This document shows positions 675-17,782 of a stretch of DNA of 64,000 bases, piece by piece (the first letter of the stretch is position 1; the number at the start of each line of letters is the position of its first letter). The notes beneath the pieces are model-generated. The model saw only the letters and a program-made list of their open reading frames with translations. It was not told the origin of the DNA and did no database searches. The position numbers and the translations under genes were made by a program. The stretch is from an uncultured bacterium (lineage in GTDB: Bacteria > Patescibacteriota > Microgenomatia > UBA1400 > MFAQ01), in the NCBI GenBank assembly GCA_963980225.1, contig CAXBYW010000001.1, positions 35,301 to 99,300 on the forward strand, given 5' to 3'.

Positions 675-1477
675 AGTTCGACATCTCAATAATTACTATC
701 CCTTACAAGTCAGAAAAACACATAGGTCCCTTACTGGACTCCATAAAAAAGTCTAAAGACGGTTTGAAAAAACAAGTTATCGTTATCGACAACTACGGCC
801 AAGAGGACAAATCAGCCCAGATTGCCAAAGACCATCCAATAAAACCCATTGTTTTAGAGCCAGGAGCAAACCTTGGTTTTGCTAAAGGAGTCAATCTAGG
901 TTTAGAAAAAGCTACAGGTAAGTACATATTTCTAATCAACCCAGACACCACCTTAGTCGGAAACGCTCTTAAGGATCTATATGATTTTGCTGAAAAGCAG
1001 GAAGTCTTAGGTGCCGTAGTTCCAAGTTTAGTTTTCCCAGACAACAAAGCTCAACCATCAGTCATGAGGCTCCCTAATATAGGAAACGCTTTTAAACACT
1101 ACTTCCTAGGTTACAAAAACCATTTCGGTAAATACTTGCCAAAGGGAAAAGTCGCTAAGGTAGAAGTGGCTGTCATGGCTGCCTTCCTCATACCTGCAAA
1201 GGTGATTAAACAAATAGGTGAGTTAGATAAACGGTTTTTTCTTTACTACGAAGATGTAGAATTTTGCCACCGACTTTTAAAAGCCAATCTACCAATCTAC
1301 TATTTATCAAAGGCCAAGGTAAAACATGTCCATGGTGCTAGTGCTAACTTTGTCAGTCACTTAAAAAGCCCACTAGCCAAATCTGCCCAGATCTACCACG
1401 GTAGAGTAGGGTCCTTCCTTTTAAATTGTGTTCTTTGGTCGGGTCAAAAATGGCAAAAGTTCATATTACGTAAATGA
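671..1477 (+). CDS. GT2 glycosyltransferase (WbbL/rhamnosyltransferase-like)
   Basis: 268 aa. N-terminal ISIITIPYKSEKHIGPLLDSI…VIDNYGQED and LGFAKGVN motifs of the GT2 nucleotide-sugar-binding fold. ATGA overlap with upstream gene. Confidence 0.7.
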   Translation: MKFDISIITIPYKSEKHIGPLLDSIKKSKDGLKKQVIVIDNYGQEDKSAQIAKDHPIKPIVLEPGANLGFAKGVNLGLEKATGKYIFLINPDTTLVGNALKDLYDFAEKQEVLGAVVPSLVFPDNKAQPSVMRLPNIGNAFKHYFLGYKNHFGKYLPKGKVAKVEVAVMAAFLIPAKVIKQIGELDKRFFLYYEDVEFCHRLLKANLPIYYLSKAKVKHVHGASANFVSHLKSPLAKSAQIYHGRVGSFLLNCVLWSGQKWQKFILRK

Positions 1478-2610
1478 AAACCATCCTTAGTAAGCTTGCT
1501 TCAATCAAGTACTTGCTTCTTCTAGCCTTCTTTGTAAGATTATTTTTTATATATTTCCAGTACTCTGGTGATGTAGGTAATCATCTAGTGTGGGGTAGAG
1601 GAGCACTAGAAGGGACCTTAGGTTTCTACAATAAATCCTTTTCTGGTTTCAATCAGCCAAACTATCCACCTCTCACCATTCTTTTATTTTCTTTCTCGGC
1701 CTGGCTTTACCAGCTGTTTCAAAATTTAATTCTTTTCATAAACCAGGCAGTTCCCCTTTTTCCTTCGAAAATCGTTCCTCTCATGGAGACTCTAAATATG
1801 CAGGCTGCCTTTTTAAAACTACCAGCTATCTTAGCTGACCTAGGTATCGGCTGGTTAATTTACAAGTTAGCTCCCGTTAAAAAAACTGGCACAAAACTTC
1901 TACTATCCAGTCTCTACCTCTTTAATCCAGCCATAATTTATATAAGTACAATCTGGGGTCAGATAGAGTCAATTCCAGTTTTCTTTATCCTTTTATCTTT
2001 ATATCTTATTAAACGTAACTATCTTTACTCCCATGTTTTCTTTACCCTAGCCATCCTTTCCAAGCAAACCGCTCTTTGGATTCTACCTGTTTTTCTCGTT
2101 TTATGGTTAAAAAATAAACCTCTAAAAGTCTTTTTTAAAGGAATCCTTCTGCAGGTCATAGTCTTCATCTTGTTATATCTTCCCTTTACTTTAAGTCTCA
2201 CAGAACCATTTAAACTATATCTTGAAACTTTATCCGGTTCTTCTGCCTTGGTTTCAGATGCCGCTTGGAACATCTGGTATTTTATTTATCCACCTCAAAC
2301 CCTAGACTCTACTTTGTTGCTAGGGTTGTCCATTCGTCTCTGGTCGATTTTACTTATCCTGTCTTCTGTTGTTTTTATAGTCTTCAACTTACTTAAAAAA
2401 AAGATCTCCCTTTATCCATCTCTATTTTGGCTTTCCATGGTTGCCTTTTTCTTACAGACCAGGGTTCATGAACGCCATCTATTTCCAGCTCTTGTCTTCT
2501 TGTTACTAATTAACTTTAAAAACAAAAATTATCTTTATTTATCTTTTACTGGTCTAACCTTGTATCATATGTTTAACCTATACCAAAGCCTAGCACTACC
2601 GTTCATATGA
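1474..2610 (+). CDS. Polytopic membrane protein, candidate GT-C glycosyltransferase (DUF2029/GT87-like)
   Basis: 378 aa with about 9 predicted TM helices. N-terminal loop GDVGNHLVWGRGALEG…FY…NYPPL resembles the first-loop motif of GT87/DUF2029 membrane mannosyltransferases. Translationally coupled to flanking GT genes. Confidence 0.4.
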   Translation: MKTILSKLASIKYLLLLAFFVRLFFIYFQYSGDVGNHLVWGRGALEGTLGFYNKSFSGFNQPNYPPLTILLFSFSAWLYQLFQNLILFINQAVPLFPSKIVPLMETLNMQAAFLKLPAILADLGIGWLIYKLAPVKKTGTKLLLSSLYLFNPAIIYISTIWGQIESIPVFFILLSLYLIKRNYLYSHVFFTLAILSKQTALWILPVFLVLWLKNKPLKVFFKGILLQVIVFILLYLPFTLSLTEPFKLYLETLSGSSALVSDAAWNIWYFIYPPQTLDSTLLLGLSIRLWSILLILSSVVFIVFNLLKKKISLYPSLFWLSMVAFFLQTRVHERHLFPALVFLLLINFKNKNYLYLSFTGLTLYHMFNLYQSLALPFI

Positions 2611-4244
2611 TCTATTTAATACTTACCCTTGCTGCTTTCCTAAGACTTTTTCAACTAGGAGGTCTCCCTATCTCCCTTTTTGGTGATGAAATCGACGTGG
2701 GCTATCACGCTTGGTCTTTAGTCACCACAGGTCGTGACTACATGGGTAACTTGCTCCCAACCTACATCCAGAGCCTGGCAGAATGGCGTGCACCTCTTTT
2801 AATGTATGTCACCGCTCCATTCATCAAATTACTAGGCCCCACACCTTTTGCTGTTCGTCTGCCCGTAGCTCTTCTGGGGGTTCTCAACATCTACCTTATT
2901 TACTTATTAGCCAGAAAGCTATTTAAAAGTAAGTATGTTGGTCTTCTGTCAGCTCTAATTCTTGCTCTCACACCTTGGCACATCCATTACTCTAGAGCGG
3001 CTTTCGAGTCCACCCTTCTTCTCACTCTTCTTCTGTCCGGCACCTTGTTTTTTGTTGTTAAACGTTACTCCTTATCAATATTAAGCTTCATTCTTACTTT
3101 ATATACCTACTCAACCGCTAACCTCTTTACTCCGCTACTTGCCCTATCCTTGTTTTTAATCTACAAAAGTAAAGATACAACTGCCAAGCTTTTTAAGAAG
3201 TCATGCCTACTTCTTTTACTACTACCCATCGCTTACCACCTTACTCTAGGTCAAGCGGCCGGTCGCTTCAGTCTCGTTAGTGTATTTAAAGATAAAGAAA
3301 TAACCTACGACATAATCAACCAACGCACCTCACCTTGGGTTGACCAAAATGATGTTGAAGAAAAAATATTCCACAACAAGGCCATCTCTTATGCTGGCAA
3401 AGTGGGCTCAAACTACCTATCTGCTTTTTCTCCTCAGTTCTTGTTCATCTCTGGTGACCCTAACTTCAGACACTCAGTAGGTAGATTTGGAGAACTTCTC
3501 TGGGCCACCGCACCATTTTTACTTCTTGGGTTTGTTATTTTAGTTAAAAATATCAGAAAGAAAGAAAACAAATTGATCTTGGCTTGGCTTTTACTATCTC
3601 CCATCCCTTCTGCTCTTACTTTTGATGGCGCTATGCACGCTACCCGCTTAATTCTTATGCTTCCACCTTTAGTCATGATCACTGCCTTGGGTATAAAGCA
3701 CATCTCTGCTTTGGTAACCAACAAAAAGATATTCAAGGTCTACGCCTTTATATTCTTTCTCATCTTAGCTCTAAGTTCTAGAGCCTACTGGCATCGCTAC
3801 TCATTCCACTACAAATTTGAATCAGCTCGTCACTGGCATGATGGTTACCAAGAAATCGGTAACAAGCTAGCACCAAGGTTAGAATCAGCCGGGAGAGTTT
3901 TTATAAACAACACCTACGAACCATCACTATTAAAGTTTGCCTTTTTTGCCAAGTATCCACCCGTCAAGTTCCAGCAAGATTTTACAGGAGATGTTCCAGA
4001 AGAAAACATAATACCAGGCTTTGACGGTTTCAAGTTTGCAGACAAGTACTACTTTGGTAATGCAAGAAACTTAAGCGACCTATTTAAAATTCTAGAGCCA
4101 GGTGATATCTACTTAGCCGTTCAAAGCAAAGAAGTGCCAGGGGACTGGGACTGGTCAAAGGAACCACCACAAGAACTAAAGGTTTTAGACTACACTAAGG
4201 ATGTATTTAACTCTCCGCTTTTTTATCTAGTTTCTCCTCGATAA
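2607..4244 (+). CDS. ArnT/PMT-like GT-C glycosyltransferase (GT39/83-like), tandem paralog 1 of 5
   Basis: 545 aa. N-terminal LRLFQLGGLP…DEIDVGYHAWSLVTTGRD, the DE loop motif of PMT_2/ArnT-like enzymes, and AVRLPVALLGVL. Polytopic membrane domain plus C-terminal soluble domain of about 200 aa. Confidence 0.75.
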   Translation: MIYLILTLAAFLRLFQLGGLPISLFGDEIDVGYHAWSLVTTGRDYMGNLLPTYIQSLAEWRAPLLMYVTAPFIKLLGPTPFAVRLPVALLGVLNIYLIYLLARKLFKSKYVGLLSALILALTPWHIHYSRAAFESTLLLTLLLSGTLFFVVKRYSLSILSFILTLYTYSTANLFTPLLALSLFLIYKSKDTTAKLFKKSCLLLLLLPIAYHLTLGQAAGRFSLVSVFKDKEITYDIINQRTSPWVDQNDVEEKIFHNKAISYAGKVGSNYLSAFSPQFLFISGDPNFRHSVGRFGELLWATAPFLLLGFVILVKNIRKKENKLILAWLLLSPIPSALTFDGAMHATRLILMLPPLVMITALGIKHISALVTNKKIFKVYAFIFFLILALSSRAYWHRYSFHYKFESARHWHDGYQEIGNKLAPRLESAGRVFINNTYEPSLLKFAFFAKYPPVKFQQDFTGDVPEENIIPGFDGFKFADKYYFGNARNLSDLFKILEPGDIYLAVQSKEVPGDWDWSKEPPQELKVLDYTKDVFNSPLFYLVSPR

Positions 4245-4653
4245 TCTTAATAGTCATCGGAAATCCAGACGGTGTTATATTCATTCCTGCTACCAAGTCA
4301 CTATCATCAACAATCTCTCCGTTAACTGGGCTCACCAAAGTTAATTTATCCATCATGTATTTTTGTTTCTCTACTTTTTTTACTGCTACATCTAGTTTTG
4401 CCTGAGCAATTTCCTTGACACCTTTTTCCTCCTCATTTTGGGGACTAGGTAGCTTCCTGGCTACATCTTCAAACTCTGCTCTAGCTCGTCGATAGTTAGC
4501 CAGGTCAATATCGAGGTCAATTTTATCTAGTTTGTCATCTAGTTTAGCCAGTCCTTGTCCTTTTTTGACAATATCTCCTTTTTTTACACCTACCCACACT
4601 ACAGTTCCTCCTTGGTAAAACCTCATCTTGATCTTTTTGTATTTGGTCGCCAT
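4207..4653 (-). CDS. HlyD/membrane-fusion-protein-like fragment (lipoyl-hairpin region only); probable gene remnant
   Basis: 148 aa. GGTVVWVGVKKGDIVKKGQGLAKLD, then a coiled-coil segment, then LTLVSPVNGEIV, which is the classic periplasmic adaptor lipoyl-domain split motif. It lacks the N-terminal TM anchor and the C-terminal beta-barrel/MP domains. It overlaps the 3' end of the upstream GT39 gene by 38 nt in antisense. Confidence 0.4.
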   Translation of the reverse strand: MATKYKKIKMRFYQGGTVVWVGVKKGDIVKKGQGLAKLDDKLDKIDLDIDLANYRRARAEFEDVARKLPSPQNEEEKGVKEIAQAKLDVAVKKVEKQKYMMDKLTLVSPVNGEIVDDSDLVAGMNITPSGFPMTIKIIEEKLDKKAES

Positions 4654-4731
4654 ACATCCAGCTTATCACAAAATATTATTTGTCAAAACAAACAACTTCC
4701 CTCAAGCTTTATTTTAGTACAATAAGCATAC

Positions 4732-6378
4732 ATGATAAAAAAGGGTTTAATCATAGTTTTAATTTTGGGTGCAGTTTTAAGACTGGTATCTTTGGGACAG
4801 GTCCCCGCAGGCATCTCTCCGGATGAAGTCTCTCAAGGATACAGCGCCTACTCTCTTTTAAAGACGGGTCAAGACGAATGGGGACTATCATGGCCCTTAA
4901 CCTCCTTTAGATCGTTTGTAGACTACAAGGCTCCTCTACAGACCTATTTAATGATCCCTTCAGTTGCTGTTTTTGGCCTAAATGAGTTTGCCGTTCGTCT
5001 CCCCTCAGCTATCTTTGGCATACTAGCCATCTACGTTGTTTACTTACTCACCAGTGAGTTGTTCAACAAAAAAACGGGTCTAGTCGCTGCCTTTCTCTTA
5101 GCCATCTCTCCTTGGCACATCCAGTTCTCTCGCACCGCTCTAGAGGTCAATCTTTCTTCCTTTCTTTTTCCCTTAGGTCTGTACCTTTTCCTAAAAGGCC
5201 TTAAAAAACCAAAGACCCTAATTCTTGCAAGTTTAGTCTGGGGATTAAACCTTTACTCGTATCACGCCGCTAAGTTCTTTCTCCCTCTGTTCTTAGTACC
5301 TTTAGTTCTCATCAATCTAGAATCGCTTAAAAAAATAAAGGTAAAACAACTCACCATTCCCCTAGCACTCCTTTTATTTTTCTTACTACCCTCTCTTTAT
5401 CTAAGTTTCTTTAGTCCCGTCGGTGCCAGAAACAAAGACTTAATCATCACGAACTTGAATCAATCCCAACTAGAGTCAATCTCAAGCGAGCAGTATCTCT
5501 CACCTTTAAATAAAATATCTCCTCAACTAACCCGAGTCTTTCACAACAAAGCGATCTACATAGCTGATCAGTTTGCCAGTAACTACCTGACCTACCTTAC
5601 TCCCACATTTTGGTTTACAGAAGGAGGCAGCGAAACCACCTACTCGATTATTCCTGGTAGGGGACTTCTATATCTCTGGCAACTACCATTTATTATCTTA
5701 GGTTTAGTAAGCTTGCTGTCCATAAAAAACAAAAAGACCAAAGCAATTTTACTTTCCTGGATCTTACTTGCCGCTATTCCGGCTGCTTTAACCAAAGAAG
5801 GCTATCGCCCCAACAGGGCAGGGTCATTCTTAGGATTATGGGAAATCATCACCGCTTTTGGTTTAGTCCAACTACTCAAACTACCAGCAAGATACAAAAA
5901 AGCTACCCATTACATATTAGGCATAGTCATCCTAGCCTCATCTGTTCTATATATAGAAGACTACTGGCTTGCCTCACCCATTAGGTTCCCCAACAGCCTA
6001 TCTTATGGCTACCGTGACTTGATGACTAAGCTAGTCCCCTTAGAAGAAGAATTTGACGAGATAATAATAAATAGGGGCACTCAGTCCCAGTCCTTTGTCG
6101 CTTTTTACAAGAAGCTAGATCCAGTTATTTTTCAAAGTTACTCATCTGATTGGTGGAAAAGGTTTGAAAAGACAGATCTTTTATACCTAGACATGTTAGA
6201 TGACTATCAGTTAGAGAATTACAGATTCAAGACAATCCACTTACCAGAGGACTTAGGGGAGCACACACTACTAGTCTTACCGGCCAAAACTTTAGATCAT
6301 CAGTACCTGCCTTTTGTCTTTGACACCGTCTTTTATCCCAACAGGGAACCGTTCCTTTATTTACTTAAAAGCAAATGA
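4732..6378 (+). CDS. ArnT/PMT-like GT-C glycosyltransferase, tandem paralog 2
   Basis: 548 aa. LRLVSLGQVPAGISPDEVSQGYSAYSLLKTGQDEWG, FVDYKAPLQTYL, AVRLPSAIFGILAIY. C-terminal motif YPNREPFLY. TACAAT at 4718-4723, 8 nt upstream of the ATG. Confidence 0.75.
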   Translation: MIKKGLIIVLILGAVLRLVSLGQVPAGISPDEVSQGYSAYSLLKTGQDEWGLSWPLTSFRSFVDYKAPLQTYLMIPSVAVFGLNEFAVRLPSAIFGILAIYVVYLLTSELFNKKTGLVAAFLLAISPWHIQFSRTALEVNLSSFLFPLGLYLFLKGLKKPKTLILASLVWGLNLYSYHAAKFFLPLFLVPLVLINLESLKKIKVKQLTIPLALLLFFLLPSLYLSFFSPVGARNKDLIITNLNQSQLESISSEQYLSPLNKISPQLTRVFHNKAIYIADQFASNYLTYLTPTFWFTEGGSETTYSIIPGRGLLYLWQLPFIILGLVSLLSIKNKKTKAILLSWILLAAIPAALTKEGYRPNRAGSFLGLWEIITAFGLVQLLKLPARYKKATHYILGIVILASSVLYIEDYWLASPIRFPNSLSYGYRDLMTKLVPLEEEFDEIIINRGTQSQSFVAFYKKLDPVIFQSYSSDWWKRFEKTDLLYLDMLDDYQLENYRFKTIHLPEDLGEHTLLVLPAKTLDHQYLPFVFDTVFYPNREPFLYLLKSK

Positions 6379-8048
6379 AGCTTTTAAAAAAACCTTGGGT
6401 TGCCTTACTACTAATTACTTTCTTTGCTTTTGGTCAAAGGTTTTTTAATATATCCTCAAATCCTCCAGCTTTAAACTGGGACGAAGTCAGCCATGGCTAC
6501 AACGCTCTTTCAATCTTAAAGACGGGTGCAGATGAATGGGGTGTAAGGTTTCCCTTAATATTTAAAGCCTTCGGTGACTACAAACTTCCTTTATATATCT
6601 ATCTAACCGCCATCCCAGTATATTTTCTAGGGTTAACTACCACCGCCGTCCGTTTAGTTTCTGTTTTAGCCGGCACCCTAGCCATTCCTGGTATCTATCT
6701 ATTAACCAATCAACTATTCCCTAAGAAAAAATCACTACCCTTTTTGGTCGCCTTCCTTTTAGCTATCAATCCTTGGCACTTCTTTATATCAAGACCTGCT
6801 TTAGAAGCCAATCTAGCTTTAACCTTAATCATCTTTGGTTTTTACTGTTTACTTAAGGCTTTTAAAAATCCTAAGTTCTATTTACCGTCATCTATCTTGT
6901 TAGGTCTGTCTCTTCATACATACAATGTCTCTCGTGTCTTTGTTCCCCTCCTTCTTATTATCTTCTTTATCATCTACCGTCCCAAGTTTAAATTTGACCT
7001 AGTCCGCACCATCTCAGTCGCTATCATCACTCTTTTCTTCTCCATAGTCGCTTATCAAGTTTTTTCTGGCAGTGGTACTGCTCGCTACTCCAAAATATCT
7101 ATTCTCTCAGACTCAGCCGTTTATCAGTTAGGTTTATCTAGAGCAGACAGTTCTCTACCTCCACTTTTGGCTAAACTTCGTTTTAATCGCCCAATTTATT
7201 TTTTATCCGAGTTTGCTAAATACTACCTATCTTACTTCTCTCCAAACTTTATCTATCAATCTCAAGGTGCTCAGTATCAGTTTGCCATCCCGGGTAAAAA
7301 TCTATTCACCTTACCAGTCAGTATCTTAAGTTTAATTGGCGGGCTCTATCTACTGCTAAAAGAAAGATCTAAATCTACCTATCTTTTGTTCTCCTGGCTT
7401 TTACTATCTCCAGTCGGGGCCGCTCTAACAGCTGACCCGCCTCAAGCCATACGTCCAAACCCCATGATTCCAGCAGTTATAATTCTTGCTAGCATTGGTT
7501 TTTACTGGGTAGTTAGTCTTTTTAAAAAGCGTCGTTGGGCACAAGTTGCTATATCAGTATCATTAATTTTAAGCTGCTTACTAGGCTATATCCGCTATCT
7601 AGACTCTTACTACCAAGAGTATCAAACCAAATATGCCTGGTCCTGGCAGTATGGTCATGAAGAGACGCTAGAGTACATAGAAGAAAACAAAGATGATTAC
7701 GACAGGGTTATCTTTACCAAGTACTACGGTGAGCCTCACATCTTCTACGCCTTTTTCACCAATCTTGACCCTAAAAATCTCCAACCTGGTGGTGACAACA
7801 TTCGTTTCAAGAAAACAGACTGGTTCTGGACAGATAGAGTAAATACCACCTACTTTGTTAATGACTGGGAGATTCCTAAGCTACTAGAAGACACCCTTCC
7901 TCTAGAAAGTGGGGGACAAGTAGCTTTAGAAGATAGTCTATTGGTTTTCTCTCCTCAGAGTCTCCCCCAAAACGTAAAGATCTTAAAAACCATCAGCTTC
8001 CAAAACGATCTACCGGTCTTCTATATAGCTATCCTTGACAAAGACTGA
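6375..8048 (+). CDS. ArnT/PMT-like GT-C glycosyltransferase, tandem paralog 3
   Basis: 557 aa. NWDEVSHGYNALSILKTGADEWG, FGDYKLPLYIYL, AVRLVSVLAGTLAI. ATGA-coupled to paralog 2. Confidence 0.75.
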   Translation: MKLLKKPWVALLLITFFAFGQRFFNISSNPPALNWDEVSHGYNALSILKTGADEWGVRFPLIFKAFGDYKLPLYIYLTAIPVYFLGLTTTAVRLVSVLAGTLAIPGIYLLTNQLFPKKKSLPFLVAFLLAINPWHFFISRPALEANLALTLIIFGFYCLLKAFKNPKFYLPSSILLGLSLHTYNVSRVFVPLLLIIFFIIYRPKFKFDLVRTISVAIITLFFSIVAYQVFSGSGTARYSKISILSDSAVYQLGLSRADSSLPPLLAKLRFNRPIYFLSEFAKYYLSYFSPNFIYQSQGAQYQFAIPGKNLFTLPVSILSLIGGLYLLLKERSKSTYLLFSWLLLSPVGAALTADPPQAIRPNPMIPAVIILASIGFYWVVSLFKKRRWAQVAISVSLILSCLLGYIRYLDSYYQEYQTKYAWSWQYGHEETLEYIEENKDDYDRVIFTKYYGEPHIFYAFFTNLDPKNLQPGGDNIRFKKTDWFWTDRVNTTYFVNDWEIPKLLEDTLPLESGGQVALEDSLLVFSPQSLPQNVKILKTISFQNDLPVFYIAILDKD

Positions 8049-8062
8049 AAAACACCTATAAT
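8035..8062 (+). promoter_or_regulatory. Near-consensus sigma70-type promoter (TTGACA-N16-TATAAT)
   Basis: TTGACA at 8035-8040 lies inside the last codons of GT39 paralog 3. TATAAT is at 8057-8062, giving a predicted TSS near 8069. It sits upstream of the 60-aa ORF, which has its own GGAGG Shine-Dalgarno site. Confidence 0.55.
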
Positions 8063-8113
8063 ACGGGATACACCTTAAAAAGTTAAACTATAGAAATCTT
8101 AGAGGAGGTTTAA

Positions 8114-8296
8114 ATGCGCAAGTTCTTGCAGACATCTTTTGGCGAGTTCCTTATGCTTGTTCTATTTATTGCGCTCGCAAGTATTTTGATGTATGTGTGT
8201 AATGCTCCAACATCTTTAAATATCACATTCGTCATCGTTTTTTCAGTTTGTGGGGCAATAGCCTTCTTCATGACTCATACAAAACCTAAAGGCTAA
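8114..8296 (+). CDS. Small hydrophobic protein, 60 aa, two predicted TM helices
   Basis: MRKFLQTSFGEFLMLVLFIALASILMYVCNAPTSLNITFVIVFSVCGAIAFFMTHTKPKG. GGAGG Shine-Dalgarno at 8104-8108 with a 5-nt spacer. Dedicated promoter upstream and intrinsic terminator downstream. Confidence 0.6.
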   Translation: MRKFLQTSFGEFLMLVLFIALASILMYVCNAPTSLNITFVIVFSVCGAIAFFMTHTKPKG

Positions 8297-8322
8297 ACCA
8301 ACTCCACAATCTTCTTCTTCAC

Positions 8323-8353
8323 AGCTCTCGCTTATAATAGCGAGAGCTTTTTT
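8323..8353 (+). terminator. Rho-independent terminator
   Basis: Perfect 9-bp stem AGCTCTCGC / GCGAGAGCT with an 8-nt loop TTATAATA, followed by TTTTTT. It sits immediately 3' of the 60-aa ORF and abuts the ATG at 8354. Confidence 0.75.
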
Positions 8354-9997
8354 ATGGTCTCTTGGTATACTTACTGTATGTTATCCAAGAAAACTAAGAC
8401 ATCAATCTTGTTGCTCGTAGCAATCTTAACTCTAGGCTTCTTGCTTCGCTTTTACAAACTCTCCACTCTTCCTCCAGGTTTAACTTGGGATGAAGCCGGT
8501 CTAGGTTACAACGCTTACTCAATTTTAAAAACTGCTAGAGACGAACATGGCACTTTCTTGCCTTTAACCTTCAAGTCCTTTGGTGACTACAAGCCCGGCC
8601 TTTATGTTTATCTAGCCGTGCCATTTATAGCTCTTACAGGGCTTACAGAAGTAGCTGTACGTCTTCCTTCAGTCATTGCCGGCACCTTAGCCATCTTTGG
8701 GGTATATCTTCTAGTCAATCAGTTGTTTGACAAAAAGAAAGCTCTCTTAGCAGCTCTCGTTTTAAGTCTCTCTCCATGGCATATTCATTTCTCCCGTGGT
8801 GCTTGGGAGGTTAACATATTTACAACAGTTCTCCTTTTTGCTATTTACTTTTTTATAAGGAGTTTGAAAAACTCAAGATACTTTATTCCTTGGGTTTTAT
8901 TGGCAGCTTCCACCATATTTATATATCAAGGAGCAAAAATGCTTACCCCTCTTATATTTTTAGGTCTTCTTGTAATCTACTTCCCTCAAGTCAAAAAAAG
9001 TTTTTCAAGCTGGTTAATACCAAAAAGCCACAAGGTTGTCGCTATTTTTTCCAGTCTTTTACTATCATTCTTCTTTATTCTTAACTTAACCGGCCCTGCA
9101 GGTAATCGCTTGGCTCGTCTAAGTATCTTTGGCTACAAGCCACAATTGTCTGGTGACAAGCTATTTCACAACCAGCCCTTGCTAACATCTCAGTTAATTG
9201 CATCAAGATATCTTTACCATTTCTCTCCAGAAGTTTTGTTTTACCAAGGTTCGACCATAACAGAAAGAGGTAACCTGCCCAAGCAAGGCATGCTTTATAT
9301 CACCGAGGCTTTTTTCTTACTCTTGGGTTTTGCAGCTCTAGCTAAGTTGAAAAACAAACAGTCACGGAACCTGGTTCTCTCACTTCTTTTTTTAAGTCCA
9401 ATACCAGCCTCCATGACCCTGGCAGAGTTTTCTACCTTTAGGGCTTTATTCATTGTCATACCTTTAAGTATTATTTCTGCTCTAGGTTTGCATTATTTTT
9501 TAACCAAATATAAAAAAATCATCACTCTTCCCATCCTTTTCTTTGTCATTTTAAATATTGTTTTGACTATAAATATCTACTTTAATCACTCATTTGAAGG
9601 TCTGGCCCCAGAGTTCAACTATGGTTACAAGCAGGCCTTTGATCAGATAAACACACTACCAGAGGCTAACAATATTATTTTTACCGACGTTTATGGTCAA
9701 CCTTATATTTATTACCTATTCTATAACCAATTCGACCCCGCAGCTTACCAAAAAATCAATTCATATCAAGGCCAAGGTATCGATGTTGGTAAAGTAGATA
9801 GGGTGGGGGATAAAATAGAGTTCCATCAGTTCAGCCACACAGAGATCTTTAACCACGCAAACACTTGGTTTGTTGGCACTAGAGGAAACATTCCTGACGA
9901 ATTTAACATAAATGACGGTAGGGTAGAGTACTATAGTGAAATATCGATACCCAACAGGGAGCCTGCATTCAGGTTAGTAAAGACCTCCAAGTTATGA
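8354..9997 (+). CDS. ArnT/PMT-like GT-C glycosyltransferase, tandem paralog 4
   Basis: 547 aa. LRFYKLSTLPPGLTWDEAGLGYNAYSILKTARDEHG, FGDYKPGLYVYL, AVRLPSVIAGTLAIFG. C-terminal IPNREPAFRLV. The true start may be the internal ATG near 8378. Confidence 0.75.
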   Translation: MVSWYTYCMLSKKTKTSILLLVAILTLGFLLRFYKLSTLPPGLTWDEAGLGYNAYSILKTARDEHGTFLPLTFKSFGDYKPGLYVYLAVPFIALTGLTEVAVRLPSVIAGTLAIFGVYLLVNQLFDKKKALLAALVLSLSPWHIHFSRGAWEVNIFTTVLLFAIYFFIRSLKNSRYFIPWVLLAASTIFIYQGAKMLTPLIFLGLLVIYFPQVKKSFSSWLIPKSHKVVAIFSSLLLSFFFILNLTGPAGNRLARLSIFGYKPQLSGDKLFHNQPLLTSQLIASRYLYHFSPEVLFYQGSTITERGNLPKQGMLYITEAFFLLLGFAALAKLKNKQSRNLVLSLLFLSPIPASMTLAEFSTFRALFIVIPLSIISALGLHYFLTKYKKIITLPILFFVILNIVLTINIYFNHSFEGLAPEFNYGYKQAFDQINTLPEANNIIFTDVYGQPYIYYLFYNQFDPAAYQKINSYQGQGIDVGKVDRVGDKIEFHQFSHTEIFNHANTWFVGTRGNIPDEFNINDGRVEYYSEISIPNREPAFRLVKTSKL

Positions 9998-11616
9998 AAA
10001 ATAAAATAGCCATACTTCTAATAATTATCTTAGCCTCTATTCTTAGGTTGTATGCCTTAGATAAATTCCCAGCTGGTTTAAACGCTGATGAAGCAGCCAT
10101 AGGTTACAATGCCTACTCACTCTTAGAGACCGGTAAAGACGAACACAGTGCCTCCTGGCCCTTAGTTTTCAGGTCATTCGATGACTATAAACCACCTCTA
10201 TATTTCTACCTCGTTCTTCCGTTTGTAAAAACCTTAGGGTTAAACGTTTGGTCGGTACGTCTTCCGTCCGCTATTCTAGGTGTTGCTTCCGTTTATCTCA
10301 TCTATCTTCTCACCAATCAACTTTTTAAAAAGAAAGGTGTGGGGTTGCTTACAGCTCTATTGCTTACAATCTCTCCTTGGCACTTACACTTCTCTCGTGG
10401 TGGCTGGGAGGCAAATTCGGCTACATTCTTTCTTTTGCTGGGTGTCTGGGCATTTATCAAAGCTTTAAAGGAATCAAAATACTTTTTTCTTTCAAGCACC
10501 TCTCTAGTAGCTTCCTTATACGCCTATCACTCCATGAGGTTGGTTGCCCCGCTTGTAGTCCTATCTCTTCTATATATATATCGCTCCAAAATTAAGATAG
10601 ACAAACACATGGTTATTTCAGCTATTCTAGGCATCGTCTTGTTTTTGCCTGTAGGCAAGCAAATGTTTGGATCAGAAGGTACATCGCGTTTTTCTGGAGT
10701 CTCAGTATTTTCAGATGAGGGTCCATTATGGGAGGCCTTAGAAAGACGTAGACAGTCACCTAATCCTAATTCCATTTCAACTAGACTTATCCACAATAAG
10801 TACCTAACTTACTCAAGACGTTTCCTGTCAAACTACCTATCTCACTATTCACCTAGGTTTTTGCTTGTTACTGGTGATGAAATTGCTAGAAGTAAGGTGC
10901 CTGGAATGGGACAGTCTTACCTATTCTTAGCACCATTTTATGTATTAGGAATATTTAATTTACTCAAAATGAATACTAAGGGTAAAAAAGTTGTTCTGTT
11001 TTGGTTTCTAATAGCTCCATTGGCCGCCGCTCTTACTTTTCAGTCACCTCATGCCTTAAGGGCTCAAAACATGGTGATTCCCCTTACTGTTCTTTCTGCT
11101 ATTGGAATATACGAATTCTTCAACTTTTTAAAGAAAAACAAAGTGGTGTCTACGATATCTGGTCTTTTATTTATTGCCCTACTAACTTACAGCAGCACCC
11201 GTTACCTGCATCAATACTACACCCATTATCCTCAGGAGCTCCCCTTTGCCTGGCAGTACGGTTTTGATCAGGTGGCCGATTACATTAAAAAGAATGGAGA
11301 CAAATATGATTCCATCATCATTTCCAACCGTTATGATCAACCCTACATAATCATGGCTTTTTTCTTACAGTACCCACCAGATAAATTCCAACAGGAAATA
11401 AAACTAGAACCAAGAGACAATTTTGGTTTCTCCACGGTAAATGCCTTTGGCAAGCTCAAATTTAAAGCCATAGACTGGGGAGAAGACAGTAAAGCAAAAA
11501 ATACTTTAATTATCACGACAGAAGAAGGTGTTGACGAAAAAGAAAAAACTATTTACGAGGTATTGTTCCCTAATAAAGAGCCCGCGTTTAAGTTTTACGA
11601 GACCAGTCGTATATAA
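9994..11616 (+). CDS. ArnT/PMT-like GT-C glycosyltransferase, tandem paralog 5
   Basis: 540 aa. LRLYALDKFPAGLNADEAAIGYNAYSLLETGKDEHS, FDDYKPPLYFYL, SVRLPSAILGVASVY. C-terminal FPNKEPAFKFY. ATGA-coupled to paralog 4. Confidence 0.75.
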   Translation: MKNKIAILLIIILASILRLYALDKFPAGLNADEAAIGYNAYSLLETGKDEHSASWPLVFRSFDDYKPPLYFYLVLPFVKTLGLNVWSVRLPSAILGVASVYLIYLLTNQLFKKKGVGLLTALLLTISPWHLHFSRGGWEANSATFFLLLGVWAFIKALKESKYFFLSSTSLVASLYAYHSMRLVAPLVVLSLLYIYRSKIKIDKHMVISAILGIVLFLPVGKQMFGSEGTSRFSGVSVFSDEGPLWEALERRRQSPNPNSISTRLIHNKYLTYSRRFLSNYLSHYSPRFLLVTGDEIARSKVPGMGQSYLFLAPFYVLGIFNLLKMNTKGKKVVLFWFLIAPLAAALTFQSPHALRAQNMVIPLTVLSAIGIYEFFNFLKKNKVVSTISGLLFIALLTYSSTRYLHQYYTHYPQELPFAWQYGFDQVADYIKKNGDKYDSIIISNRYDQPYIIMAFFLQYPPDKFQQEIKLEPRDNFGFSTVNAFGKLKFKAIDWGEDSKAKNTLIITTEEGVDEKEKTIYEVLFPNKEPAFKFYETSRI

Positions 11617-11626
11617 TTACCTTGCT

Positions 11627-12478
11627 ATGAAAAAGCAGACCCTTTCGGTGGTTTTAGCCACCTACAATGAAGAAGAAAACATTGCTGACTGCATAAAGTC
11701 GGTTAGTTCGGTGGCGGATGAAATAATAATTGTAGACGAGTCTTCAACAGATAAAACCAGAGAGATAGCCAAGAAGCACGGCGCCTTAGTTTACAAAGTA
11801 AAGCACGAACCAATTTTCCATGTTACTAAAAACAAGGCTATTAAAAAAGCCAGCAAAGATTGGGTTCTCCAAATGGACGCCGATGAAAGGCTTACCTTTA
11901 AGATGGCAAAAGAAATTTCCGGGATACTATCAGGGGAGTACTTTGGGGTAGATTCTTGGCTTTCACCCATCAAGCGATCTTTATTGTTTTTTCCTAAGCC
12001 TAAAAAGTTGATTCAACCAGCTGCTGCCTACTGGTTACCTAGAAAAAACCTATTCCTAGGTAGATATCTAAAAAACACTGGTCAGTACCCAGATCCAGTC
12101 ATCAGACTTTTCCAAAAAGGTAAGGCAATCTTGCCTGCCAAAACAGTACACGAACAACTAGATGTGTCTGGTACAGTCGGATGGTTACAGTCAGACCTAG
12201 ACCATTTAGCTACTCCCAAGTTTGAAAGGTATCTAGAGCGCGAAAATCGTTACTCTGATCTAGAGGCCAAGCTTCTACAAGGTAGGGGAGTTAAAATCAC
12301 AGTTTTAAACACTCTAACTTACTTATTTTTTAAACCCACAAAAACCTTCCTTTCCTTATATATCCGCCACAGAGGTTTTTTAGATGGTTTCCCTGGGTTT
12401 GTTTTCTCTCTCTACTCGGGTTTCCACCACGCCTTCTCCTACATGAAGCTTTGGGAAATATATAAGAACAAGTCATGA
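11627..12478 (+). CDS. GT2 glycosyltransferase (WaaE/KdtX-like subfamily)
   Basis: LSVVLATYNEEENIADCIKSV…IIVDESSTDKT, and C-terminal RHRGFLDGFPGFVFSLYSGFHHAFSYMKLWE, typical of this GT2 subfamily. The start was chosen at the first ATG after the upstream stop codon; the ORF-track start at 11528 overlaps the previous gene. Confidence 0.7.
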   Translation: MKKQTLSVVLATYNEEENIADCIKSVSSVADEIIIVDESSTDKTREIAKKHGALVYKVKHEPIFHVTKNKAIKKASKDWVLQMDADERLTFKMAKEISGILSGEYFGVDSWLSPIKRSLLFFPKPKKLIQPAAAYWLPRKNLFLGRYLKNTGQYPDPVIRLFQKGKAILPAKTVHEQLDVSGTVGWLQSDLDHLATPKFERYLERENRYSDLEAKLLQGRGVKITVLNTLTYLFFKPTKTFLSLYIRHRGFLDGFPGFVFSLYSGFHHAFSYMKLWEIYKNKS

Positions 12479-13494
12479 ATAAATTAAGGATTCAACTAAA
12501 CTCAGGTGAACACTCCAAGGGTAGGGGAGTAGGAAACTACGCTAAAAACCTTAAAGAAGCTCTAAGAAAAAACCAATCTATAAAATTGGTCACTAATGAT
12601 CCAGATATTGAGCATTACACTTTTTTCGATCTTTTTTACCCTACCCTACCTCTCAAAAAAAAATACCCCACAGTAGTTACTGTTCATGATTTAACCCCGC
12701 TAGTCCTTTCACATTTGTATCCAAAAGGCCTTAAAGGAAGTATTAATCTATTAAGACAAAGATTGTCTCTGGTAAATGTTTCAGCTATCATCACTGATTC
12801 GGAAAACTCAAGAAGAGATCTAATAAAAATCTTTCTTCTTCCTCCAGAAAAAGTTTTTGTGACTCCCCTAGCAACAGATAAAATTTACAAAACTCAACCT
12901 TCTCCAATTTCGGTGGGAAAAATTAAATCAAAATTTGATCTACCAGAAAAATTCATTCTTACTGTAGCTGGTGGGCCCAACCCTAATAAAAACCTTCCTG
13001 CTTTAGCAGAAGCAACCAAGGTTTTAAAAATCCCTTTAGTCATAGCTGGTGGTGGTGTGGCTAAAAAAGCTCCTCAAGGTAAAGTTCATAAGGAGTTGCA
13101 AGATTTAGTTAAATTAAGAGGCTACTCTCATGTCATTACTCCCGGATTTATTACCAACAAAGAGCTTCTAGCCTTCTATTCACTAGCCACCCTTTACTGT
13201 CAACCTTCCTTGTACGAAGGCTTCGGTCTACCTGTACTAGAGTCCATGCATGCAGGTTGTCTAGTCGTATCAAGCGACACTAGTAGTTTGCCAGAGATCT
13301 ACGCTCCTGGAACCATTACTTTTGATCCACAAAGTCAAGATAGTTTACAGAATGCTCTCCAAAAAGCTCTTGACCTCTCTGATAAAGAAAAGAATCAACT
13401 TATTAAAGAAGCCAAAGAGGTAGCTAAGCAGTTTACTTGGAAACAGACAGCTGATCAAACAGTAGAGGTTTACACCCAAGCACTTTCATTATGA
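12475..13494 (+). CDS. GT4 glycosyltransferase (GT-B fold)
   Basis: C-terminal EGFGLPVLESMHAGCLVVSSDTSSLPEI (EX7E-type GT4 motif). Confidence 0.75.
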   Translation: MNKLRIQLNSGEHSKGRGVGNYAKNLKEALRKNQSIKLVTNDPDIEHYTFFDLFYPTLPLKKKYPTVVTVHDLTPLVLSHLYPKGLKGSINLLRQRLSLVNVSAIITDSENSRRDLIKIFLLPPEKVFVTPLATDKIYKTQPSPISVGKIKSKFDLPEKFILTVAGGPNPNKNLPALAEATKVLKIPLVIAGGGVAKKAPQGKVHKELQDLVKLRGYSHVITPGFITNKELLAFYSLATLYCQPSLYEGFGLPVLESMHAGCLVVSSDTSSLPEIYAPGTITFDPQSQDSLQNALQKALDLSDKEKNQLIKEAKEVAKQFTWKQTADQTVEVYTQALSL

Positions 13495-14567
13495 AGAAAA
13501 TCTTTTTAGTATTTTTTGTTTGGGTAATCACTATCTATGCCTTTACTTTTTTAAGTTCAACCCCTGCTTTCTTTGATTACTCATACGAATCAACTTCAAT
13601 GATTAAGGAAAATATTCCCAGCATAAGGCACTTGCTGAACTTTGACGGTAGTCATTATCAAAACATTGCTCACTTTGGCTACATCAAGAAATTTCAAACA
13701 GCTTTTTTTCCGCTTTTCCCAATAATGATAAACTTCGTAAGTTTTATGACTCAAAGTCATCTAATTTCAGCTCTCCTTATTTCCTTGCTTTGTACTTACT
13801 TATCAGTTTTAGTTATTGTTAAGCTTTTTAAAAAACCAACGGCGGCTATTATCTTGATATTTTTTCCTCTCTCTTTCTTTTTTCTGGCAGGTTATACAGA
13901 AAGCCTGTTCCTTTTTCTGTCTCTGTTGTCTTGGCATTTCTTTAAAGAAAAAAAATATTTACTTTCAGGTGCATTAGGTTTCTTGACCTCTCTTTCAAGG
14001 TTCTATGGAATTCTACTTTTCCCCTCACTCCTACTAGAGTTTTTTCTAAAGCTACCAAAAAACAAAAGATTAAAACTTATCTCTTATAAACCCGTTGTCC
14101 CGCTCTTGCTGATTCCTTTAGGTTTAGGTAGTTACATGGTCTACCTACAATTAATTTACCAAGATCCACTCGCCTTTTTTACCGCTCTTTCTCTTTGGGG
14201 TAAGTCAACTATTACTTTTCCTTTACAGACCATCTATCGCTACTTTAAGATTATCACTACTGTATCACCCACTATTATTCAGTACTGGGTAGCTCTACTA
14301 GAGATACTAAGTCTAGTAGTAGGTCTCTTGGCATCTCTTATTCTTTACAAGCAAAAACAATTCTCTTACTCACTTTATGTATTCTTAGGCTCGATCATTC
14401 CTTCCTTTACAGGGACTCTTCAGTCACTTCCAAGGTACTTGCTAGTTTTGTTCCCAATCTACTTTATTAAGTTACCAGTCAAACTTCATTTTCCTATCCT
14501 TGCTGCAAGTTTTACTCTTCAACTTGTACTACTCACCGCATTTTTAACAGGCCACTTCATTGCCTAG
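13491..14567 (+). CDS. PIG-V-like (GT76-like) membrane mannosyltransferase, paralog A
   Basis: 358 aa, polytopic. LNFDGSHYQNIAHFGYIKKFQTAFFPLFP matches my recollection of the PIG-V family loop motif (WDxxHYxxIAxxGY…AFFPxxP). Confidence 0.5.
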   Translation: MKKIFLVFFVWVITIYAFTFLSSTPAFFDYSYESTSMIKENIPSIRHLLNFDGSHYQNIAHFGYIKKFQTAFFPLFPIMINFVSFMTQSHLISALLISLLCTYLSVLVIVKLFKKPTAAIILIFFPLSFFFLAGYTESLFLFLSLLSWHFFKEKKYLLSGALGFLTSLSRFYGILLFPSLLLEFFLKLPKNKRLKLISYKPVVPLLLIPLGLGSYMVYLQLIYQDPLAFFTALSLWGKSTITFPLQTIYRYFKIITTVSPTIIQYWVALLEILSLVVGLLASLILYKQKQFSYSLYVFLGSIIPSFTGTLQSLPRYLLVLFPIYFIKLPVKLHFPILAASFTLQLVLLTAFLTGHFIA

Positions 14568-17456: not shown

Positions 17457-17782
17457 GTATTCAAATAATCTCAATTTCTTTTGCTGGATTTATGCTTTAC
17501 ATAACTTTTTTACACAGCAAGAGAGGTAGTCTAAATAAGATAGAGTTTTATTCATGGGTTTTTCTATGGCTAGCTTTTATTTACTTTGCTCTTTTCCCCA
17601 AAGTACTAGACCCAATTTTGGCTCAACTTTTTGTTGCTCGTACAATGGATCTTCTGATGATTGCTGCCTTTATGATTTTGGCTTATCTTGGATTTCAAAA
17701 TTATATTGAAATAAAAAATTTACAAAAACAAATTAGAAGAATGGTCAGTCAAAAAGCTATCAAAAAAGCCAGTAAAAAATGA
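17438..17782 (+). CDS. Small 3-TM membrane protein with charged C-terminal tail (DUF2304-like GT2 partner)
   Basis: 114 aa with three hydrophobic helices, then NYIEIKNLQKQIRRMVSQKAIKKASKK. Overlaps the GT2 by 19 nt and the downstream ferredoxin by ATGA. Confidence 0.45.
   Translation: MVEAFLGIQIISISFAGFMLYITFLHSKRGSLNKIEFYSWVFLWLAFIYFALFPKVLDPILAQLFVARTMDLLMIAAFMILAYLGFQNYIEIKNLQKQIRRMVSQKAIKKASKK

Follow-up and report, generated by a model that had tools for sequence, protein, structure and literature searches.

Glycosylation across the membrane by several components acting together has a precedent in described multi-component systems (PMC8035078). The Gram-positive examples GtlA/GtcA/GtlB, CsbB/GtcA/YfhO and GacI/J/K/L devote one GT-C enzyme to each decoration. 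Other relatives of the GT-C fold are the mycobacterial enzymes PimE, MptA/B/C, EmbA/B/C and AftA-D (lipomannan/lipoarabinomannan, arabinogalactan), and the eukaryotic lumenal mannosyltransferases ALG3/9/12 and PIG-M/V. ArnT (CAZy GT83; PDB 5ezm/5f15) is the product of a single gene in the lipid A pathway and has a small C-terminal periplasmic domain. Protein-modifying relatives include STT3/AglB/PglB (GT66) and Pmt (GT39). An acidic DE motif in the first loop is a GT-C hallmark; it is required in ScPmt1, and its Asp is required in ArnT (PMC8698208).

We analysed a window of 64,000 nucleotides (the whole stretch of DNA studied here) from a CPR genome of ~1 Mb, in which five neighbouring genes encode GT-C glycosyltransferases of one PMT_2 subfamily, previously uncharacterised; a literature search found nothing on this array. 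The five enzymes show no detectable sequence relationship to the mycobacterial or the eukaryotic ALG/GPI sets beyond the fold, and they differ from both in belonging to a single subfamily. The Gram-positive systems are alike in combining a PMT_2-type GT-C with a GacI/PpgS-like GT2 and its DUF2304 partner, and in a Wzx-type flippase, which is present in the window. Here, however, a group of five to eight GT-C proteins is conserved. We propose that five anciently diverged, non-redundant enzymes probably build one surface glycoconjugate stepwise.

All five genes lie where the first-pass annotation had placed them, on the plus strand, and their products span 540–557 aa: copy 1 (2607..4244, 545 aa), copy 2 (4732..6378, 548 aa), copy 3 (6375..8048, 557 aa), copy 4 (8354..9997, 547 aa, or 539 aa from an alternative ATG at 8378) and copy 5 (9994..11616, 540 aa), the most conserved of the set. 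Described at first as consecutive, they are neighbours on the same strand but not strictly contiguous, with gaps of 487 bp between copies 1 and 2 (containing a minus-strand ORF, 4207-4653) and of 305 bp between copies 3 and 4 (containing a 60-aa ORF, 8114-8296). Overlaps of 4 nt join the stop of copy 2 to the start of copy 3, the stop of copy 4 to the start of copy 5, and the start of copy 1 to the stop of the gene upstream. Each product passes the Pfam PMT_2 model (PF13231, gathering cut-off 26.1 bits), with scores from 28.8 (copy 3, the weakest match, yet a member of a tightly conserved clade) through 44.9 (copy 4) to 60 bits (copy 2). Pairwise identities of 29–36% over 460–560 aa (BLASTP, E 1e-48 to 1e-89) place the similarity far beyond chance and agree with the earlier description of the copies as only moderately similar, over nearly their full length. 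The best DNA match between copies is ~70% over 80 nt, at the stretch encoding DE..GY..TG.DE, and near-identical DNA is thus absent from the array. Two further genes of the window, at 38475 and 47161, had been listed as paralogs, but close kinship with them is not supported, as they match the five over local stretches and lack the DE..GY signature.

We surveyed 80 species-level Microgenomates loci from other species, all of which hold orthologous arrays. Each copy falls into its own clade of a neighbour-joining tree built without bootstrap support, with members in 41–79 of the 80 loci (41 for copy 2; 69 for copy 3, which never has more than one member per locus). Identity within clades is 36–49%, compared with 27–32% between them. 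All five clades are represented in 28 of the 59 loci with sufficient upstream sequence, and in every one of these 28 the order is 1-2-3-4-5; copies 3, 4 and 5 stand next to one another as a core in 58/65 loci, and a positional orthologue of copy 4 lies directly upstream of copy 5 in 58/65. The duplications are therefore ancient and have been retained, as the first-pass annotation had proposed.

The copies also retain putative catalytic residues. R13, P21, D27-E28, G32-Y33, A35, S37, T41 and D44 (copy 1 numbering) do not vary among the five, which upholds the core of the first-loop signature reported initially, although its second 'DE' reads DY in copy 1. Other motifs are looser than first described: the 'YK' second loop reads EWRAPL and DYKPGL in copies 1 and 4, respectively, and A-V-R-L-P-S is exact in copies 2 and 4 only (AVRLPV, AVRLVS and SVRLPS elsewhere). 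Across the orthologues, every one of the five clades shows at least 85% conservation of D32/E33, D49, R89, W129, S134, R135, R232, R356 and G423, with D32/E33 reaching 91–100% per clade and 100% in that of copy 2. No copy has lost the acidic pair and, to judge from residue conservation, all five would be catalytically competent.

Structure models predict ~12–13 membrane helices per copy and place the D-E motif in the first extracytoplasmic loop, where a short loop helix begins. In these models the membrane part closes with a helix that ends near residue 405-415, so that the soluble C-terminal domain would comprise ~125–140 aa rather than the ~200 aa first estimated, with one predicted topology common to the copies; this alpha/beta domain is expected to lie outside the membrane. 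A W-x-Y-G motif is conserved directly after the last helix. The terminal motif PN(R/K)EP is indeed present in copies 2, 4 and 5, but the proposed division of these from copies 1 and 3 fails in orthologues, where just 2/46, 1/100 and 1/84 members of the copy 2, 4 and 5 clades carry it; such rarity marks a lineage quirk, not a class. The EL4-like loop and the C-terminal domain are the regions least conserved across clades, and most clade-specific residues of copies 3 and 5 (nine are conserved in the copy 3 clade) map there. Together with the fixed gene order, this distribution is consistent with non-redundant copies specialised for different acceptors or substrates, as we infer.

The array is embedded in a conserved set of plus-strand neighbours. 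Upstream, U378 (1474..2610) encodes a 378-aa polytopic membrane protein of ~6 hydrophobic segments with no Pfam or NCBIfam match. Its homologues occur in 25/80 loci, always within or beside the array and frequently adjoining copy 1 or lying between it and copy 2. U378 may itself be GT-C-like, its match to a profile of the five copies being weak (hhalign E 0.03, probability 1.6%). Ten nucleotides past copy 5 begins the array's most constant neighbour, a soluble GT2 glycosyltransferase without a hydrophobic segment (GT2d, 11627..12478; Pfam Glycos_transf_2, 66 bits), which directly follows the copy 5 orthologue in 77/80 loci. A soluble GT4 glycosyltransferase follows (GT4d, 12475..13494; Glycos_transf_1, 89.5 bits), overlapping both flanking genes by 4 nt and directly downstream in 70/80 loci; the glycolipid-anchor synthases IagA/BgsA are among its NCBIfam matches below threshold. 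Next come tandem paralogues (33% identity, E 7e-31) that share the loop motif N-F-D-G-x-x-Y-x-N-(I/L)-A-x-x-G-Y: a 358-aa PIG-V-like polytopic membrane protein (U358, 13491..14567) and a 379-aa polytopic PIG-V-like protein (14600..15739) that passes Mannosyl_trans2 (PF04188, 24.0 bits; cut-off 22.4) and is a GT-C of another family than the five copies. A PIG-V-like homologue lies downstream of the GT4 gene in 61/80 loci.

A possible source of the sugar donor lies further along the same strand. The product of 16800..17456 matches the NCBIfam PpgS model over its full length (NF058614, 2-212 to 2-219 of 226; E 1e-20) but below the cut-off (74 vs 370 bits), and on this similarity is a candidate polyprenyl-phosphate-sugar synthase. 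It has homologues in 18/80 loci, where as a rule they come after the PIG-V-like gene. The adjoining gene (17438..17782) encodes a small DUF2304 membrane protein (PF10066, 67.8 bits); homologues occur in 11/80 loci and follow the PpgS-like gene in most loci showing both. GacJ is itself a DUF2304 protein, and by analogy the product is a candidate partner of the GacI/PpgS-like GT2. The principle that GacI works with the small membrane protein GacJ has been described (PMC8035078). The window also contains a second, AglJ-like GT2, as well as ManC, Wzx, Wzy and a phosphoglycosyl transferase. Beside the array, a GtrA-type flippase was not seen.

The conservation of soluble GT2, GT4 and PIG-V-like proteins in one operon favours stepwise assembly outside the membrane. 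On the proposed model, the soluble GT2 and GT4 would supply early cytoplasmic steps, possibly on a lipid anchor, and the GacI/PpgS-like GT2 with its DUF2304 protein, often in the operon, would make a lipid-phosphate-linked donor. Drawing sugar from this donor on the outer side of the cytoplasmic membrane, each copy would add it to one and the same cell-surface glycoconjugate as this grows, but at a position or stage of its own. The acidic pair of loop 1 would position or activate the acceptor, more plausibly a glycan or lipoglycan than a protein; one or two PIG-V-like GT-C proteins of the operon would accompany the five. Such logic would be akin to the mycobacterial lipomannan/lipoarabinomannan or ALG/GPI assembly lines. 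Against this model, the synthase pair adjoins the array in just 11–18 of the 80 loci, a minority that also sets it apart from the Gram-positive systems, and the core conserved across these loci has neither an initiating phosphoglycosyl transferase nor a flippase. Nor does sequence point to one type of acceptor, for the nearest solved folds mix protein-modifying enzymes (STT3, AglB, PglB, Pmt) with lipid- or glycan-modifying ones (ArnT, ALG12, ALG9).

Alternatively, the copies could be Pmt- or OST-like protein glycosyltransferases, each dedicated to its own class of secreted or surface protein (pilins, S-layer or adhesin-like proteins) and reading its acceptor through the EL4-like loop and C-terminal domain. 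We regard this as unlikely, although several observations speak for it. Copies 1 and 5 pass Pfam PMT (PF02366), and copy 4 alone passes STT3 (PF02516; 28.2 bits, cut-off 24.5); Foldseek ranks STT3, AglB and PglB highest, and AglB is the solved structure that comes closest in sequence (E 4e-5). W-x-Y-G, at the junction of membrane and C-terminal domain, recalls the OST motif WWDYG. GT2d finds its best sequence matches among solved structures in SunS, annotated as a peptide S-glycosyltransferase, and GmaR, a flagellin glycosyltransferase, a likeness that suits protein glycosylation equally well. However, the copies and their orthologues have Q, H, N or L in place of the Asp of WWDYG, and their C-terminal domain is far smaller than that of STT3/AglB/PglB. 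A Pfam search found neither PMT_4TMC nor MIR domains in the five copies, and the bacterial Pmt equivalog model gives 15.5 bits where 800 are required. With membership tests for Pmt, ArnT, OST and Agl23 failed or mixed, the original label 'GT39' is nominal. Furthermore, a Pmt-type system requires polyprenyl-P-mannose synthase alone, whereas GT4, GT2 and PIG-V-like genes are co-conserved here, and a fixed order of five paralogues suits sequential steps more than parallel acceptors.

The 4-nt overlaps coupling copies 2-3 and 4-5, and the strict co-occurrence in fixed order, would also suit hetero-oligomers resembling Pmt1-Pmt2 or EmbA-EmbB, whose solved complexes are among the structural neighbours, with some subunits catalytic and others scaffolds or Agl23-like flippases. 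TIGR03663/Agl23 is the best NCBIfam match of every copy, and Agl23 translocated lipid-linked oligosaccharide in reconstituted liposomes (PMC11182771). Nevertheless, these matches (24–52 bits) fall far under the 126-bit cut-off, and retention of the DE motif and conserved Arg residues in all five clades argues against dead subunits, making such complexes distinctly improbable.

That the copies are ArnT-like envelope modifiers, adding five parallel single-sugar decorations to membrane lipids or teichoic-acid-like polymers and so tuning surface charge or resistance, appears highly improbable. The source annotation reads 'L-Ara4N transferase-like', the copies approach ArnT in size (chain 5f15_A, 541 aa), and decoration of lipoteichoic acid is known from PMT_2 enzymes, GtlB among them (PMC8035078). 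Yet identity to ArnT is just 10–13%, only copy 2 registers any score with the ArnT equivalog, far below its cut-off (PRK13279, 17.7 vs 567 bits), and the array is one of five fixed paralogues outside any lipid A context, in a window where no arnA/B/C-type genes were seen. Optional decorations added in parallel usually differ from strain to strain, whereas this set and its order are conserved class-wide. Finally, an artefact of assembly or a recent amplification, suggested by the tandem arrangement alone, is ruled out for practical purposes by the protein and DNA divergence, the recovery of the identical array from independent samples and assemblies (at least 23 contigs), and the arrays of 80 other species.

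Stepwise assembly of one glycoconjugate is thus the reading that we favour, and the presence of the array in dozens of related ultra-small (Microgenomates/CPR) bacteria points to an uncharacterised multi-step surface-sugar pathway.

The five tandem paralogs occupy the forward strand of the window as copy 1 (2607–4244, 545 aa), copy 2 (4732–6378, 548 aa), copy 3 (6375–8048, 557 aa), copy 4 (8354–9997, 547 aa) and copy 5 (9994–11616, 540 aa), with two intergenic gaps interrupting the array. Pairwise BLASTP gives 29–36% identity between copies over 460–560 residues (E values from 1e-48 to 1e-89), and all five are PMT_2 proteins; the first-pass annotation had described them as moderately similar. 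The motifs it listed also held in substance, with small deviations between copies. At the DNA level, the longest similarity between copies is ~70% over 80 nt and encodes the DE..GY..TG.DE loop. The same identical array is found on at least 23 contigs from independent samples. Given this recurrence and the divergence of both protein and DNA, we conclude that the observation is real and reflects neither chance nor artefact; on the strength of the low inter-copy DNA identity and the independent contigs we rejected gene conversion as well as an assembly artefact.

All copies exceed the gathering cut-off of PMT_2 (PF13231; 41.1, 60.0, 28.8, 44.9 and 46.9 bits for copies 1–5 against 26.1), and the structures modelled for copies 1 and 5 have the polytopic GT-C fold. 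The GT39 label initially given to them reflects a database naming habit. Pmt (GT39) proteins carry a C-terminal PMT_4TMC domain, with MIR in eukaryotes, and neither gave a Pfam match in any of the five copies at E values up to 0.01; the N-terminal Pfam PMT model (PF02366) is reached by copies 1 and 5 (27.9 and 30.3 bits against 22.7) and has no match in copies 2, 3 and 4, while the bacterial Pmt equivalog NF058602 matches only copy 1, at 15.5 bits against a cut-off of 800. ArnT (GT83) is alike in fold, but its lipid A/L-Ara4N pathway context is absent within the window: no arnABC-type genes were found among the 60-odd window ORFs scanned with Pfam and NCBIfam, and the ArnT equivalog PRK13279 matches only copy 2 (17.7 bits against 567). 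STT3 (PF02516) is reached by copy 4 (28.2 bits against 24.5), with a sub-threshold match for copy 2 (18.8 bits) and none for the others, and the Agl23 model TIGR03663 covers only the N-terminal part, at 24–52 bits against 126.25. No copy reached the cut-off of any curated NCBIfam family.

Among solved structures, a sequence profile of the five copies detects AglB (E 4e-5) and ArnT (E 0.03) over ~60 residues; the narrower profile of copy 5 orthologues found no solved-structure sequence even at E 10, and copy 2 alone returned only noise. Foldseek searches with the copy 5 model place STT3, AglB, PglB and ArnT on top (E 8e-9 to 1e-6) and Pmt lower, and sequence identity to these structural neighbours is 8–18%. 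Given this low identity and the missed NCBIfam cut-offs, the five copies are GT-C-fold PMT_2 proteins without a close characterized relative. Three more PMT_2 genes in the window (28901–30394, 38475–39896 and 47161–48576), which bring the total to at least eight within 48 kb, belong to different subfamilies. Their similarity to the five copies is confined to the surroundings of membrane helices 3–4, and the DE..GY signature is lacking; we therefore rejected them as members of the same subfamily, and close kinship of the products at 38475 and 47161, which the first pass had called paralogs, is not supported.

AlphaFold2 models of copy 5 (45-sequence alignment; pLDDT 86.5, pTM 0.88) and copy 1 (pLDDT 78.5, pTM 0.84) show the same succession of ~12–13 membrane helices, with a first loop carrying a short helix that starts at the D-E pair and a long, partly helical loop at about residues 226–309 (here called the EL4-like loop). 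Both end in an alpha/beta domain whose elements run in identical order (helix, strand, two helices, two strands, helix, three strands). Since the last membrane helix is predicted to end near residues 405–415, this domain would comprise ~125–140 aa, shorter than the ~200 aa first proposed. In copy 1, residues 460–487 and 508–514 of the domain are of low confidence because the alignment contained no copy 1 orthologues.

The first loop carries the putative catalytic residues. D32-E33 (copy 5 numbering throughout) is invariant in the five copies and 91–100% conserved in each clade of their orthologues, and in the copy 5 model the pair sits at the N-terminus of loop helix 31–46; judged from the fold family, the loop would face outwards. 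Across ~350 proteins, the residues conserved at 85% or more in every clade are R18, P26, D32, E33, S42, T46, G47, D49, P56, Y72, G82, R89, W129, S134, R135, Y178, R232, R356, G371, G423 and P462. The loop-1 DE motif is a hallmark of GT-C enzymes; mutation of D77/E78 abolishes the in vitro activity of yeast Pmt1, and mutation of the equivalent Asp55 abolishes ArnT function (PMC8698208). Because no clade has lost the motif, the sequences support, rather than prove, the proposal that all five copies are catalytically competent.

Conservation differs from region to region. Averaged across all clades, the frequency of the top residue is highest in loop 1 (0.61) and falls to 0.38 in the EL4-like loop, in membrane helices 9–12 (residues 310–416) and in the C-terminal domain; calculated within clades, it is 0.41–0.60 for the EL4-like loop and the C-terminal domain, two regions that hold most of the invariant residues setting the clades of copies 3 and 5 apart. 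We infer that this concentration fits acceptor-side specialization of the copies. The PN(R/K)EP terminal motif is present in copies 2, 4 and 5 of this genome, as had been noted, but it is largely missing from their orthologues and was rejected as the marker of a subclass. Where the last membrane helix ends, all five clades conserve an immediately following W-x-Y-G motif (residues 420–423 of copy 5, window ~11251–11262), with Gly at 95–100%, Tyr at 38–91% and Trp at 63–100% (Met in clade 2, the orthologues of copy 2). In oligosaccharyltransferases (STT3/AglB/PglB, GT66) a WWDYG motif marks the start of the C-terminal domain, and we take W-x-Y-G to resemble it in sequence and position. Since the Asp of WWDYG is not kept, its position being occupied by Gln, His, Asn or Leu in the clades of the copies, we regard this likeness as a lead only.

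Hundreds of close relatives of copy 5, at 55–76% identity, come from Microgenomates of the CPR, Collierbacteria and Woesebacteria among them. Scanning one genome per GTDB species yielded 357 stretches encoding relatives, of which the best 80 were taken with 10-kb flanks and all their long ORFs compared with the window copies by BLASTP. Orthologous arrays are present across these 80 loci: the gene directly upstream of the copy 5 orthologue best matches copy 4, the next copy 3, and so on, with 35–58% identity to the positional counterpart against ~30% to the other copies. Each window copy falls into its own clade in a neighbour-joining tree of 362 PMT_2 proteins, computed without bootstrap support; the positional best matches agree with these clades. 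Members of clades 1 to 5, numbered by window copy, occur in 43, 41, 69, 70 and 79 of the 80 loci, respectively. Mean identity is 36–49% within clades and 27–32% between them. In 59 loci, the sequence upstream of copy 5 extends for at least 8 kb. All five clades are represented in 28 of these, in every case in the order 1-2-3-4-5, and the genes of the 3-4-5 core lie side by side in 58 of 65 loci. Separate clades, fixed order and higher identity within than between clades indicate that the duplications are older than the diversification of the class and that each copy has been retained separately, bearing out the first-pass view of ancient, retained duplications.

Turnover affects the outer part of the array and spares the 3-4-5 core. 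The closest relative (72–75% identity) lacks copy 2 and reads copy 1, an antisense ORF, copy 3, copy 4, a ~1.4-kb gap and copy 5; in the Collierbacteria loci L005–L011 and L013, three other divergent PMT_2 genes stand in place of copies 1 and 2. Many array-bearing public MAG records (L005, L011, L014, L017, L029, L038 and others) bear the title 'uncultured Pseudomonadales', 'Gammaproteobacteria', 'Spirochaetia' or 'Clostridia'. Arrays and flanks alike clearly belong to the Microgenomates type, and the stated taxonomy seems to be a placeholder or an error.

Together with GT2, GT4 and PIG-V-like genes, the array forms a larger conserved operon. On the downstream side of copy 5, homologues of a soluble GT2 (11627–12478), a soluble GT4 (12475–13494) and a PIG-V-like polytopic protein (14600–15739) occur in 77, 70 and 61 of the 80 loci. 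The last has a tandem paralogue of 358 aa, U358, at 13491–14567 (33% identity, E 7e-31); the pair share the loop motif N-F-D-G-x-x-Y-x-N-(I/L)-A-x-x-G-Y, and most related genomes hold a single copy. A 378-aa polytopic membrane protein with no assigned family, U378 (1474–2610), is encoded either ahead of copy 1 or between it and copy 2 in 25 of the 80 loci; its match to the five-copy profile (hhalign E 0.03, probability 1.6%) is too weak to call it GT-C. Four-nucleotide start/stop overlaps couple U378 to copy 1, copy 2 to copy 3, copy 4 to copy 5, and GT2, GT4 and U358 to one another. We rejected the soluble GT2 as a polyprenyl-phosphate-sugar synthase, since it lacks a membrane segment and best matches enzymes of SunS/GmaR type, over the N-terminal 115 residues. 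A PpgS/GacI-like GT2 (a full-length match, at 74 bits against a cut-off of 370) and a small DUF2304 membrane protein lie 5 kb downstream of the array, and occur in 18 and 11 of the 80 loci, usually after the PIG-V-like gene. GacI and the small membrane protein GacJ make C55-P-GlcNAc for the GT-C enzyme GacL (PMC8035078). In multi-component transmembrane glycosylation systems the synthase is encoded with the GT-C enzyme; the pair described here adjoins the array in only 11–18 of the 80 loci. Such systems also have a dedicated flippase of GtrA or Wzx type; in the window, a Wzx-like gene (30411–31667; PF01943, 80 bits) lies 19 kb off, outside the conserved core, and GtrA had no match near the array.

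Both intergenic gaps hold further features. Between copies 3 and 4, positions 8035–8353 form a self-contained mini-gene, with a perfect sigma-70 consensus (TTGACA, 16 nt, TATAAT; 8035–8062), a GAGGAGG ribosome-binding site, a hydrophobic 60-aa ORF (8114–8296) with no homologue in the 80 related loci, and a 10-bp GC-rich hairpin with a T-run (8323–8348) that runs right up to the ATG annotated as the start of copy 4. The mini-gene may split the array into two transcription units, and the true start of copy 4 may be the ATG at 8378. In the gap between copies 1 and 2, an antisense ORF of 148 aa (4207–4653, reverse strand) shares 38 nt with the end of copy 1 and has weak biotin-lipoyl/HlyD barrel-sandwich matches under the Pfam cut-offs. 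It is conserved only in the closest relative, L004 (81% identity), and many other genomes carry the U378 gene there instead. A ferredoxin-like gene of 64 aa (17779–17973; Fer4_13/Fer4_15 in the annotation of locus L001), between the DUF2304 gene and a GT2 gene, is an odd companion in a glycosylation operon and had no homologue in the related loci.

Up to ~56.6 kb, the window consists almost wholly of glycan genes by Pfam and NCBIfam scan. Positions 1–56600 hold at least ten GT2, at least eight GT4, eight PMT_2 and two PIG-V-like genes, Wzx, Wzy_C, a Bac_transf phosphoglycosyl transferase, ManC, an epimerase/dehydratase, an acetyltransferase and three SAM methyltransferases, and a second AglJ-like GT2 is also present. 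Housekeeping genes (RecO, a class II tRNA synthetase, MraZ and MraW) appear only from 56.6 kb on, and no tRNA or Rfam element was found in the 64-kb window. In mid-island, three consecutive polytopic membrane proteins of 535, 343 and 432 aa (20319–24249, forward strand) and a 1024-aa protein (24929–28003, reverse strand) have no Pfam or NCBIfam match and could be further unrecognized glycan-processing proteins. The island takes up a very large part of a genome whose size is probably ~1 Mb.

We consider it fairly probable that the five are non-redundant enzymes building one surface glycoconjugate. Fold, family, residue conservation, age, order and neighbours are observed; for this reading we also infer the donor class and topology, action in sequence, and an acceptor that is a glycan or lipid. 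All five would take their sugars from lipid-phosphate-linked donors on the membrane's outer face, each adding a different residue or linkage to the growing glycoconjugate; the co-conserved GT4 and GT2 would perform early cytoplasmic steps, and the PIG-V-like and U378 proteins other steps. Such a pathway would be alike in logic to mycobacterial lipomannan/lipoarabinomannan synthesis and to the lumenal ALG/GPI steps. A more ambitious version, which we think less likely than not, joins U378, the five PMT_2 proteins, GT2, GT4, one or two PIG-V-like GT-Cs and sometimes the GacI/GacJ-like synthase in a class-wide Microgenomates assembly line for a lipid-anchored glycan outside the membrane, with coupled copies 2–3 and 4–5 acting as hetero-complexes. 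It would be a bacterial counterpart, in logic, to lipomannan/lipoarabinomannan synthesis or the ER-lumenal ALG/GPI steps. Ultra-small bacteria of this kind are thought to live attached to host cells; if the assembly line exists, its glycan could be a major envelope component and mediate this attachment.

Other readings fare less well. That the copies are protein glycosyltransferases, each with a different protein acceptor, is suggested by their oligosaccharyltransferase and Pmt structural neighbours and by the SunS/GmaR-like GT2 next to the array, but several features of Pmt and oligosaccharyltransferase membership are missing and GT4 and PIG-V-like genes are co-conserved; we think it unlikely. 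Translational coupling would suit hetero-complexes in which some subunits are non-catalytic or, after the model of Agl23 (PMC11182771), flippase-like, a quite improbable arrangement given that catalytic residues are kept in all clades. Slightly less credible still are parallel ArnT-like decorations, which share fold and annotation with the copies but conflict with the poor ArnT equivalog match and with the class-wide conservation of both set and order. Recent amplification or artefact can practically be dismissed in the face of the protein and DNA divergence, the independent contigs and the orthologous arrays.

Microgenomates genomes are ~1 Mb, and to our knowledge their cell envelopes are almost unstudied. 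Across the class, a set of five to eight membrane glycosyltransferase genes is kept in fixed order; the five copies alone take up ~9 kb, inside roughly 55 kb of glycan genes. So large an investment of coding capacity in a small genome implies an important, conserved and undescribed surface glycoconjugate. The superfamily of enzymes is already known, and public annotation carries generic labels. Full-text searches of the literature on glycosyltransferases and lipoglycans of Microgenomates, CPR and Patescibacteria found no description of the array, and a separate PMT_2 subfamily with five ancient clades, its fixed gene order across a CPR class and the conserved operon with GT2, GT4 and PIG-V-like genes appear to be undescribed. 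The five clades, their invariant residues and the variable EL4-like loop and C-terminal domain offer targets for expression, mutagenesis and structure determination, and the operon is a marker by which the product can be sought in enrichment cultures. To glycobiology, the array is a natural test case of one GT-C scaffold diversifying its acceptor specificity; for the biology of ultra-small bacterial envelopes, it is a solid, testable lead rather than a mechanistic surprise.
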